Below, in pieces: positions 31,626-50,936 of a stretch of 64,000 bases of DNA (within the stretch, counting starts at the first letter, position 1; each line of letters starts with the position of its first letter). The position numbers were made by a program, and so were the translations under genes. This DNA is from Rickettsiales bacterium (GTDB taxonomy: Bacteria > Pseudomonadota > Alphaproteobacteria > Rickettsiales > Anaplasmataceae): positions 528,838 through 592,837 of the forward strand of contig OZ253531.1 of assembly GCA_965262395.1 (NCBI GenBank), read 5' to 3'. The notes under the pieces were generated by a model. It ran no database searches. It saw only the letters and a list, made by a program, of their open reading frames with translations, and was not told the origin of the DNA.

Positions 31626-34600
31626 ATGTCTATAAAACATCTTGGCTCACGTAATATTGCCATCATTATTTCTTCTATATTATTGTTGCTTATAGCAATA
31701 GCAATAGCAATAATTTTTGCTGTAATATTCTCGAAAATCAAGAATAAAACACTACAATCTTCTAGGCAAAGAAGGCAAAAACTCTCTGCAATGGGTATTG
31801 CAGAAAAACTGAAAGCAATGACTGAAAAAGAAACAGTAAGTGTACTTAAAGATTTTATTAAAAGCGATGCGGAAGGAGTGCCCGAGATTGTGAGGTTTTG
31901 TGCGACTGATCCTAAGATATTGGGAAGATTGAATAAGAATGAACATGACACATTACTAAAGAAAATATATACACAAGTAGATGGGCGTGTCGATATACAA
32001 GGCTTGTTAAAGAAAAAGATTAATATTGATAATGTGGCTGATGTAGCGCTTGATAATTATGGTACCTCAGATGAATTTTTAACAGCTACACTTGCATTAA
32101 TTAACGCCGGCTCTGATATAAAGGCATCATCTATTGCAGAAAAGATTATTTATGCAATTGCTCCAGGAGATTGGTATACAGCAGATATTAAGTTTGATGA
32201 GATAATGACACCTAAGTTACTACAGGTGTTATTTTCTACTGACAAAGAAAATCAATCTGTTTTTGCCGAGGTTTTGAAGCAGATTGTAGCTAGGGCACCA
32301 GATGAAGATTCAGTAGAGCAATATTCGCAAGAAGCATATAATTTTTTGCAACGTATCATTGTGCATTCAGCTGTTAACAATCATCTCAAAGTGAAAGATA
32401 TCCATTTAATAGTTCAATATATTGTGCATACGACCAATGATCCAATGCGCATATCTGAACTTATTAATGATCTGGCAGATGGTTTACAAAAGGCTCGCTC
32501 TGCGAATGATAATTCCTTTTTCGGCGTAGATCCAGAGCAGCATAAATATGTCCAGAGTATGTTGGTTCATCTTTTTTGTGGTGTGTATAATGAACTAGAG
32601 AAAAAACTAACAGAGGTGTTAGATATTATCAAAGAACATGGGAATCAGAATGGTGAATATAATACAAGACATCATGCTTTACAGATGTCATTTTTACGCA
32701 TTATTCCATTCACTAATCTCTCTTTTCTGCTACCTTCTCAACCTGCAGATGATCATTCTGTTGTTGATAAGAATATATTACAATTATTCATGATTTTATG
32801 CATTCATAATGCAGATATTGATGGTAATACATGTACCTCATCTTTTTTGGATCCTGGTTCAGTTGATGGTTTGAATAAAGAACGGCCTATAGATACTGCA
32901 TCTATAAATGGTATATTGATTAAATTATCTTGCTATTCACAATTAATAAAATTAATTGATGCTTTGTTAATGCATAAATTAATTGATATTAATGAATTGG
33001 CGAGTATTTCAGCTGCTGCACCGACTCAAAGAAGTCTTATTTATCTTGAAGAGGTTACGTCTACCCTGTTTTCTGAAGATATTTCTGCGTTACTGATTAA
33101 AATATTGACACATGATTCATGCTCTGAAGTATCTAAAAAATACATAATGAAAGAGTGTACAGACCATATCAAGAGCGAAAGATTTGAAGATAATATCAGC
33201 AATATTTGTATATTCGTAAATCAATTGATTCTTCTTGGCAAGGATGGGAATGACTGGGTAAATGAAGGTTTATTTAACATTTTTCCTATTCTGATGGAGC
33301 ATTCTCTTACACCCTGTCTGAAAAAGGATTGCTATGAAACAGTATGCAATCTTGCGTTATACCTTGCTACTATAGCTAATGATAAATGTATAAAAATATT
33401 ACATGCAGGACAGGCTGATTTACATGCCCAGCTTGATGGGGTCAGGGTAGATAATGGAAGTAGGACAGTAGAGGATGATGATGTTCGTAAAAACATAAAA
33501 CAGCAGATTAATAACTCTACTATGATTATTCTTGCATGTGAAGCAAAACGGTATGTTGGTGCAACACCTGATGCACAAAATTCTCAAACTAAAGACAGTG
33601 ATAATGCTTTTGCTTTAGCATTACATTTGATGAATGTTGTATTTGTGGAGAAGAAATTATCTTTTGAAGATCTTGTAGCCATAATGCACATTGCTAGAAA
33701 CAATCAAGATAAAGATAACCTTTTAGGAATGATTTTCCATGATCAAGATAACCGTTTAGGAAGTACTCTCCATGATCAAGCTTTGGTTGTGGATGGTTAT
33801 GATGATAGATGTGATGGCATGATGCGAATGGCATTATTTTGTATAGAAAATATGATATTTTTATCGGATCCTACGCATCTTGCAGGTTTGATCGGTATAA
33901 ATTCAGCTGGCCAGGAAGGTAGAGACGCTCTAAATAAAGCTCAGGAATTAATACAACAAGATGGCGGTGTTTTCTTTGGTGATGATGAAAAAAGTTGCGC
34001 TCAATGGGCTAGGGCAGGCGCAAATGAAGTAGCATGCCTAATTCATATTGCTAAAACATTGAGATTGGCTTCTATTGAGACAGTTAGTTTTCCTAATGAC
34101 CCTAGGTGGATTGATTCATTAGAAGATGGCATGTCCACCACTAACGATGATGTTATGACCTATGAGCAATGGAATGACTTATGCAAATATTTATCTGAGA
34201 GGAACAAACCACATTTATTAGTGCCTATATTATTGTATTTGTATAAAATGAACGCAGTTGCACAAAATAATCAAGATGGCGATTCAATAGATATTGGGAA
34301 TTACCTTGCAGTCATTAGTTTGATGGTAGACTCCAAAGCGGAAGAGGATCATTTATTTTTTGAATTAACTGACTCATGGCAACATTTCTCCGATCAAATT
34401 AAAGAAAATTTCAATGAGTTCCTTAAGTTTATGTGTGATTGCGTCAATAAGAGCCAAGACCAAGGTAGGCGAGATCGGCTCTATAAAAGCAATATATTCC
34501 GCATGCTCCTGGAATGTGCCGCAGATTCAAACGTAGCAGTAAACTTTAGTAATCAAAATTTAGTTCGTTTCTTGTTGTGTGGCGCAGAAGAGCGAAAAGA

Positions 34601-50936: not shown

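Follow-up and report, generated by a model that had tools for sequence, protein, structure and literature searches.

The window analysed here, a stretch of 64,000 nucleotides from contig OZ253531.1 of a Rickettsiales bacterium, carries one giant gene whose product combines a single N-terminal transmembrane (TM) helix, a multi-thousand-residue arm, a predicted SecA-type motor and an acidic, Ser-rich tail (Table 1). A preliminary description of the stretch had proposed this architecture, and our analysis recovered it, together with the positions given there for the TM helix, the basic stretch behind it, the 10-residue triple repeat, the coiled-coil sequence and the tail. The reading frame is open on the forward strand from a TTG codon at 31596 to position 50936; read from the ATG at 31626, it encodes 6,436 amino acids (aa) and ends in a single terminal TAA.

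Several lines of evidence indicate that this gene is real. The giant frame contains no internal stop, compared with 230–896 stops in the remaining five frames, and base composition predicts a probability of about 1e-222 for 6,436 codons without one. The G+C content of the codon positions follows the order GC1>GC2>GC3, in agreement with six housekeeping genes of the window. Relative synonymous codon usage also correlates with that of these six genes, both overall (r = 0.87) and within slices of 1,000 codons (0.78–0.86), whereas a control read out of frame reached 0.66. The public protein record (P0001) is likewise 6,436 aa long, and its product is identical to the translation from the ATG at 31626. 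Non-coding flanks of 376 bp upstream and 585 bp downstream border the gene. Because the frame is free of stops and its codon usage resembles that of the housekeeping genes of the window, the gene is coding and native over its entire length, and the uninterrupted 19.3-kb frame described previously is borne out.

Table 1. Features of the giant gene and its product, in window coordinates (aa, amino acid positions in the 6,436-aa product).
Feature	Position	Strand	Remarks
Shine-Dalgarno-like AGGA boxes	31613-31616, 31619-31622	+	9 and 3 nt 5' of the ATG at 31626
Giant open reading frame	31626..50936	+	6,436 codons + TAA; 726 kDa, isoelectric point 5.3
N-terminal TM helix, aa 11-35	31656..31730	+	best 19-residue window: mean Kyte-Doolittle 3.31
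Basic juxtamembrane stretch SKIKNKTLQSSRQRRQK, aa 36-52	31731..31781	+	
Variable arm, aa 53-3236	31782..41333	+	non-repetitive; no known domain; no detectable similarity to the paralogues
In-frame repeat, 30 bp x3.4 (10 aa x3), aa 2706-2735	39740..39840	+	Tandem Repeats Finder
Acidic Val/Glu/Thr-rich low-complexity linker, aa 3237-3285	41334..41480	+	precedes block A in all three paralogues
Block A, aa ~3286-3440	41481..41945	+	weak; collinear with P0002 aa 3381-3556 and P0003 aa 1682-1834
Block B, aa 4243-4584	44352..45377	+	27% identity to P0002 (E 2e-29); also recognisable in P0003
Heptad-like helical segment, aa 4627-4661	45504..45608	+	coiled-coil sequence of the preliminary description, placed by position
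Pre-motor region, aa 5154-5429	47085..47912	+	kept with P0002; BLASTP alignment begins at aa 5154
SecA-like ATPase motor, aa 5430-5990	47913..49595	+	NBD1, PPXD-like insert, NBD2
Walker A TGEGKS, aa 5494-5499			motor motif
DExD VVDECD, aa 5597-5602			motor motif
PPXD-like insert, aa ~5614-5774			within the motor
Motif III SGTIG, aa 5792-5796			motor motif
Motif V, aa 5918-5930			motor motif
Motif VI, aa 5958-5972			motor motif
Post-motor helical region, aa 5991-6330	49596..50615	+	opens with a 47-residue helix; low-to-moderate model confidence
Ser/Glu/Gly-rich tail, aa 6331-6436	50616..50933	+	106 residues, of which 22 are Ser and 12 are Glu
Tandem array, 100 bp x4.6, 98% matches	50891..51351	+	final 14 codons and TAA of the giant gene lie within the first copy

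The motor was identified by profile, sequence and fold comparisons. Pfam assigned SecA_DEAD to aa 5400–5627 (E 2.8e-17) along with a weak P-loop_SecA match, and gave still weaker matches to ResIII and DEAD. NCBIfam models of SecA and SecA2 aligned aa 5487–6034 with SecA positions 93–594, although all eight models scored well under their cut-offs (84.8 bits for the best, against a cut-off of 862). SecA chains from the PDB matched the motor at motifs I and II and at the SecA-specific motifs V and VI (TIATQAGARGTNI; RQAEGRSARQGQPGS). When the giant motor was aligned with 55 relatives, 22 of the 22 invariant columns of this 56-sequence family alignment, which cover the Q motif, Walker A, DExD and motifs III, V and VI, were present in it. 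Because all invariant motor columns are retained, the ATPase looks catalytically competent.

An AlphaFold2 (AF2) model of aa 5430–6330 supports the same assignment. Its predicted local distance difference test scores (pLDDT, block means) lie mostly between 75 and 95 over the first 560 residues, and the modelled layout consists of a first nucleotide-binding domain (NBD1), a helix and beta-hairpin domain inserted at the PPXD position, a second nucleotide-binding domain (NBD2) and then the 47-residue helix, which has a pLDDT of 55–72; the last modelled residues, up to aa 6330, fall below 50. In a Foldseek search against the PDB, the first 35 matches were all SecA (E 7e-21 to 1e-11, ~600–1,000 aligned columns), with ~17–18% identity in the fold alignments, while DinG and DEAD-box helicases ranked far below, with E-values over 10 orders of magnitude weaker. 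Pfam did not report PF01043 for the giant protein; the insert in the AF2 model, which looks like a degenerate PPXD core, aligns with the PPXD core of the family. The earlier suggestion of a complete SecA-like ATPase is thus correct for NBD1, the PPXD-like insert and NBD2, but does not extend to a scaffold, wing or zinc motif: Pfam found no SecA_SW (PF07516) in the giant protein or in its 29 nearest relatives and no SEC-C zinc motif in the giant protein, and hhalign comparison of the region after NBD2 with the scaffold/wing tails of SecA aligned only 22 columns, all of them in motif VI. Taken together, the motor is of SecA type but is not a housekeeping translocase.

The stretch aa 5237–6436 was searched exhaustively with phmmer against 1.84 billion representative proteins. 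This yielded 2,358 proteins at E<=1e-3, and besides the query only two, P0002 (6,718 aa) and P0003 (4,219 aa), fell below 1e-30. Both are encoded on the query's contig of 1,687,069 bp, and both have an N-terminal hydrophobic helix and a motor near the C-terminus. A word-indexed homology search had missed these paralogues, returning only the query itself for the last 5,000 aa and nine true SecAs for the motor profile. Within the motor, the three paralogues are mutual nearest neighbours, with Kimura distances of 1.23–1.49 among themselves, at least 1.64 to other relatives and at least 1.93 to true SecA. All three also have blocks A and B in the C-terminal module, and these blocks were found nowhere else. 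Their N-terminal arms (~3,200, 3,400 and 1,700 aa) have no detectable similarity to each other.

By these comparisons, the three-gene family is an old expansion inside the lineage. Its members share one plan: a TM helix, a fast-evolving and mostly helical arm, blocks A and B with the pre-motor region, the SecA-type ATPase and a disordered Ser/Glu-rich tail. The preliminary description had argued that the giant gene is being maintained, and the paralogues agree with this, since at less than 30% identity all three keep intact giant open reading frames (ORFs) and catalytic residues. That three old copies all stayed intact is the best available evidence for selection on the giant genes, which together occupy 52 kb, or 3.1% of the 1.69-Mb genome.

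Beyond the paralogues, the other 147 best phmmer matches are not SecA orthologues (E 1e-20 to 1e-36, compared with 1e-9 to 1e-17 for true SecAs). Because the giant motor is nearer to these proteins than to true SecAs, in both phmmer E and Kimura distance, it belongs to a separate, non-canonical SecA-like clade that occurs in large, mostly unannotated, effector-like proteins of obligate intracellular bacteria and in some proteins annotated as eukaryotic. In a Pfam survey of the 29 nearest relatives, SecA_DEAD was found in all 29, P-loop_SecA in 28, SecA_PP_bind (PF01043) in 16 and SecA_SW in none; a few also carry ankyrin repeats (4), DnaJ (2), UCH (1), OTU (1) or RickCE (1). The 150 nearest relatives have a median length of 1,140 aa, and among these representatives an N-terminal TM helix was found only in the three paralogues and in one further protein (P0123).

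A genome scan, with one genome per species, located the motor in metagenome-assembled genomes of Coxiellaceae and of a Legionella, in Candidatus Arcanobacter lacustris, Parachlamydiales, Candidatus Bandiella numerosa and Cardinium. The open frames around the motor at these loci (L001–L011) span ~1,800–4,500 aa or more and are nearly unannotated outside the motor, apart from Colicin D in one and LysM in another. A further case lies on a plasmid of Candidatus Megaira polyxenophila (CP113870.1, L013, 36608–57076), where WPX99843 and WPX99842 are annotated as "SecA-like domain protein". These coding sequences (5,225 and 1,589 aa) are on the same strand, 21 nt apart, each with its own motor, and take up ~36% of the 57-kb plasmid. 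Similarity between the giant protein and the SecA-like giants of the other genomes or of the Megaira plasmid ends at the motor, and no homology was detected in the arm. Three clade members are annotated in eukaryotic assemblies (P0016, P0118 and P0157), namely a 1,955-aa protein of Folsomia candida, a 3,678-aa PARP fusion of Monosiga brevicollis and a protein of Engraulis encrasicolus.

In contrast to the motor, the arm has few recognisable features. The earlier account of it as long, non-repetitive and without a recognisable domain was confirmed, as self-BLAST detected no internal repeats. No family was assigned to the arm by Pfam, NCBIfam, PHROGs or PADLOC: the first 3,500 aa gave sub-threshold noise only (SieB, TetR_C, Spt5 CTD), and matches in the overlapping C-terminal 3,436 aa were confined to the motor. 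Matches of the arm to ferritin and dCMP deaminase, obtained by phmmer against the PDB and with a three-paralogue profile, were rejected as chance, with the deaminase motifs absent. Block B, the core of which reads KSVNAILG...IPIGHCIEFFNMLY, has no relatives in the PDB, and a search of JGI metagenome contigs for blocks A and B gave 318 pattern matches, none of which was confirmed. Between the two blocks, BLASTP and a three-way alignment revealed further collinear patches among the paralogues. AF2 modelling of aa 3297–4496 with the three-paralogue alignment failed (pLDDT 33.6); this low-confidence model hints that the arm could be mostly helical with a few small sheets. The Ser/Glu-rich character of the C-terminal tail was found as previously noted.

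The N-terminal helix is the only true TM segment of the giant protein, as the other two hydrophobic 19-mers are beta-strands of P-loop domains. A single TM helix followed by a strongly basic stretch had been described before, and both are present. From the positive-inside rule, it had further been argued that the bulk of the protein lies on a cytoplasmic face. This argument is clear for the present copy alone, where the 15-residue flanks of the helix carry charges of +3 (N-terminal) and +6 (C-terminal); the corresponding values in the two paralogues are +3/+4 and +3/+2. In bacteria, targeting by the signal recognition particle means that an extremely hydrophobic helix emerging first from the ribosome favours inner-membrane insertion.

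The genes around the giant gene include those for RecO, a LexA-like repressor, GshA, RNase E/G, HlyD, an aminotransferase and UbiB, among many family-less ORFs. The UbiB sequence is 100% identical to a protein of the same contig and 44–55% identical to everything else, with best named matches in Candidatus Mesenet longicola, Wolbachia, Ehrlichia, Rickettsiales bacterium Ac37b and a Rickettsiaceae metagenome-assembled genome. Placement of the genome in Rickettsiales is well supported, whereas UbiB does not settle its placement at family level (Anaplasmataceae). The genome is rich in orphans, because many sizeable ORFs near the giant gene could not be convincingly assigned to any family of Pfam or NCBIfam (2649–4178, 9452–10777, 20689–21573, 22573–24034, 25785–26748, 28698–30776, 51522–53123, 53883–55094 and 57613–59016); two of these gave sub-threshold matches only, to Dna2_Rift (28698–30776) and to a lipase chaperone (57613–59016). 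Upstream of the giant gene, we also observed a LexA/CI-like repressor with a helix-turn-helix and an S24 peptidase (21791–22426, +) and an ORF at 19591–20478 (+) with a weak GGDEF-like match under the cut-off (E 6e-5). An ORF of 216 aa with a MotB_plug domain (5030–5680, +) directly precedes one of 925 aa that gave a marginal TPR match (5680–8457, +). For a reduced genome of the Rickettsiales type such a pair is unusual; it may be a leftover, or else a stator-like pair put to a new use. A 6S RNA (62397–62553, +; Rfam 60.2 bits) and a tRNA-Asn(GTT) (27430–27504, +), the latter directly 3' of an 8-bp x24 microsatellite (27241–27430), were also identified.

Tandem arrays are common between the genes of the window, in keeping with the repeat-rich genome reported earlier. 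Four of them (8395–8863, 18172–18643, 20415–20671 and 30598–31034, with periods of 121, 121, 70 and 57 bp) begin 63–179 nt inside the 3' ends of ORFs (5680–8457, 17831–18280, 19591–20478 and 28698–30776) and extend intergenically. The repeat unit of both 121-bp arrays includes the stop codon, the same pattern as at the giant gene, where the 3' end and a trailer of ~54 nt are duplicated four times downstream. Arrays of this kind at ORF 3' ends resemble tandem repeats that have been reported in Ehrlichia ruminantium. Further arrays lie at 4340–4971, 17139–17691, 53277–53742 and 56740–57450. A spike in G+C content (0.436 versus ~0.34) coincides with a 45-bp x14 (141-bp x4.7) repeat at 24657–25322, within a 410-aa ORF (24198–25430, +) that has no Pfam or NCBIfam family and is overlapped by long ORFs on the opposite strand.

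We then compared the giant protein with known systems. With canonical SecA and SecA2 (PF07517, PF01043, PF21090 and PF07516; PDB 1tf2, 6itc and 6sxh) it has in common a two-lobe DEAD-type motor in which the SecA-specific motifs I, II, III, V and VI were located, as well as an insert where SecA has its PPXD and a modelled long helix after NBD2; SecA chains are also its best PDB matches in both sequence and fold. In contrast to these, its motor is embedded in a TM-anchored protein, at aa 5430–5990, and is without detectable PF07516 or SEC-C. The SecA-like proteins of intracellular bacteria (those of Megaira, Amoebophilus, Legionella fallonii lfa2470 and the scanned loci) resemble the giant in motor clade, large size (2,000–5,200 aa) and lack of SecA_SW, but they lack an N-terminal TM anchor, mostly have the motor in the middle of the protein, and show no homology to the giant beyond that motor. 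Domains of the Ank, OTU, UCH, RickCE, DnaJ or Colicin D type occur in some of them; none of these was detected in the giant protein at E<=1 with Pfam and NCBIfam, and only a minority of the relatives have them. SecA-like helicase-related domains have been listed among the effector domains of Amoebophilus (Zhang et al., 2012, PMC3482391), and lfa2470, with its SecA DEAD-like domain, has been counted among the eukaryote-like genes of L. fallonii (Gomez-Valero et al., 2014, PMC4256840).

A further likeness is to the giant, TM-rich proteins of Omnitrophota and Actinobacteria, most of which have divergent SecA DEAD and preprotein-binding domains with no scaffold or wing, and for which export of the giant protein or of accessory proteins was suggested (West-Roberts et al., 2023, bioRxiv 10.1101/2023.11.21.568195; see also 10.64898/2026.06.07.730766). 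As here, these proteins are membrane-anchored, have the divergent SecA DEAD/PPXD near the C-terminus, and have a function that is inferred. They differ in their numerous TM helices, a size of up to 85,804 aa, carbohydrate-active, peptidase, dockerin and related domains and a frequent location near type II secretion genes, whereas the giant described here has one TM helix, no Pfam domain of these kinds, and a reduced Rickettsiales-type genome around it. Similarly, the SecA-like ATPase domains of giant actinobacterial toxins were predicted to help secretion (Kaur et al., 2021, PMC8195603). The giant toxin-like proteins of Wolbachia and Rickettsia and the polymorphic toxins (PMC3482391) are likewise very large, lineage-restricted and fast-evolving, with no adjacent immunity gene. 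However, no C-terminal toxin module (deaminase, latrotoxin-CTD, nuclease or OTU) was detected in the giant protein by Pfam, NCBIfam, PHROGs or PADLOC, and we rejected a polymorphic toxin. A type I-secreted RTX or BIg adhesin was rejected as well, given the lack of internal repeats and of RTX or BIg Pfam matches and a cysteine content of 2.1%, where such adhesins have very little cysteine.

It had been stated that no characterised protein has such an architecture. This is literally correct, since our literature search turned up no experiments on any motor of the non-canonical SecA-like type; on the other hand, the giants of Omnitrophota and Actinobacteria have been described computationally and the proteins of the Megaira plasmid are annotated. 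A giant with a non-canonical SecA-like motor is therefore of a kind already known from computation and annotation, including in Rickettsiales, and does not form a new category. The novelty lies in the N-terminal TM anchor, the motor near the C-terminus, the orphan blocks A and B, and the presence of three such giants in one small genome.

Our preferred reading, with a probability of roughly 0.4, is that the giant protein is a motor that handles polypeptides at the expense of ATP, tethered to the membrane on its cytoplasmic face and dedicated to a specialised secretion or remodelling task. The N-terminal helix is hydrophobic enough for capture during translation and would insert into the inner membrane of the bacterium itself. 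The bulk of the protein would then be on the cytosolic face, for three reasons: the motor depends on ATP, the charges around the helix of this copy follow the positive-inside rule, and cysteine makes up 2.1% of the residues. There, ATP hydrolysis would power the motor as it holds an unfolded polypeptide and moves it in a SecA-like clamp formed by NBD1, NBD2 and the PPXD-like domain. The arm would hold this translocation or unfolding ATPase at the membrane, possibly with a role at the symbiont-host interface rather than in general secretion, and the three paralogues may serve different clients or partners.

A number of observations weigh against such a tethered motor. Coupling to SecYEG is unsupported, because nothing homologous to the scaffold, the wing or the two-helix finger of SecA was detectable. 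The positive-inside bias is weak or reversed in the two paralogues, and the 146 nearest relatives other than the three paralogues and P0123 do not have an N-terminal TM helix. The role given to the arm is a guess, as its AF2 model was unsuccessful. Lastly, several relatives carry eukaryote-directed domains, so the module may work in the host cytosol and the giant may be exported.

The last point leads to the main rival, which we regard as somewhat less likely than the tethered motor: a secreted giant effector. Such a protein would leave the cell by type IV or type I export, possibly via an inner-membrane intermediate, its helix would enter the vacuolar or another host membrane, and its motor would act on host proteins in the host cytosol. 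This would fit the nearest motor relatives, which occur in proteins with Ank, OTU, UCH, RickCE or DnaJ and in proteins annotated as eukaryotic (Folsomia, the Monosiga PARP fusion), as well as the concentration of the clade in intracellular bacteria and the eukaryote-like and effector contexts of lfa2470 (PMC4256840) and the Amoebophilus proteins (PMC3482391). The quick divergence of the arms between paralogues, the acidic, disordered, Ser/Thr/Glu-rich C-terminus, the weak or reversed charge bias around the paralogues' TM helices and a HlyD-type component of type I secretion systems in the window (14349–15812) are also consistent with export. However, the extremely hydrophobic N-terminal helix favours retention in the inner membrane, the protein has a mass of 726 kDa, Pfam recognised no secretion signal, RTX repeats, toxin or eukaryote-like domain in the giant, and within the window no secretion genes adjoin it. 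Both options of the preliminary description, a tethered translocation or remodelling machine and a giant effector, stay live.

The recurrence of SecA-like domains in very large proteins of unrelated phyla (2,000–4,500 aa at the related loci, 5,225 aa in Megaira) could alternatively mean that the domain acts in cis, unfolding its own giant chain and driving its export or membrane assembly, as proposed for the Omnitrophota giants (10.1101/2023.11.21.568195) and the giant actinobacterial toxins (PMC8195603). We consider this improbable here: the motor is C-terminal and hence synthesised last, the single TM helix leaves no second one between an exported arm and a cytoplasmic motor, most of the relatives are not giant, and no SecY-binding elements were detectable. 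A nucleic-acid helicase or remodeller, with the DEAD-type core acting on RNA or DNA, is suggested by the superfamily-2 fold and by the lower-ranked ResIII and DEAD matches in Pfam and DinG and DEAD-box matches in fold, but is very unlikely given the lead of SecA in the fold ranking, the SecA-specific motifs V and VI and the retained PPXD-like insert. Least credible of all is a trivial origin, for which the SecA_DEAD match alone could be cited: scores far below every cut-off, the zero stops, native codon usage, identical public product and two paralogues of the same plan effectively exclude a housekeeping SecA or SecA2 fused to an unrelated ORF, a decaying pseudogene and an artefact of assembly or annotation.

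Overall, because ~3% of a reduced genome is given over to three giant genes of one plan, these genes probably matter to the biology of the symbiont. The paralogues add a TM-anchored variant to a clade that extends over Legionellales, Chlamydiae, symbionts in Bacteroidota, several families of Rickettsiales and the giants of Omnitrophota and Actinobacteria. As true orphans, blocks A and B of the arm could mark a lineage-specific host-interaction module. The motor itself (~560–650 residues) models well and keeps its catalytic residues, and it therefore offers a tractable entry to what such motors do, whether they translocate polypeptides, unfold them or have some other activity. It is conceivable, though we think it unlikely, that the three paralogues represent a new SecA-derived machine, a SecYEG-independent motor tethered to the membrane on its multi-thousand-residue arm, for instance an autonomous unfoldase or translocase that passes specific clients, or even its own chain, through the membrane of the symbiont or of the vacuole. 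If true, this would provide the first function for the whole non-canonical SecA-like clade, which spans intracellular bacteria and the giants of other phyla.

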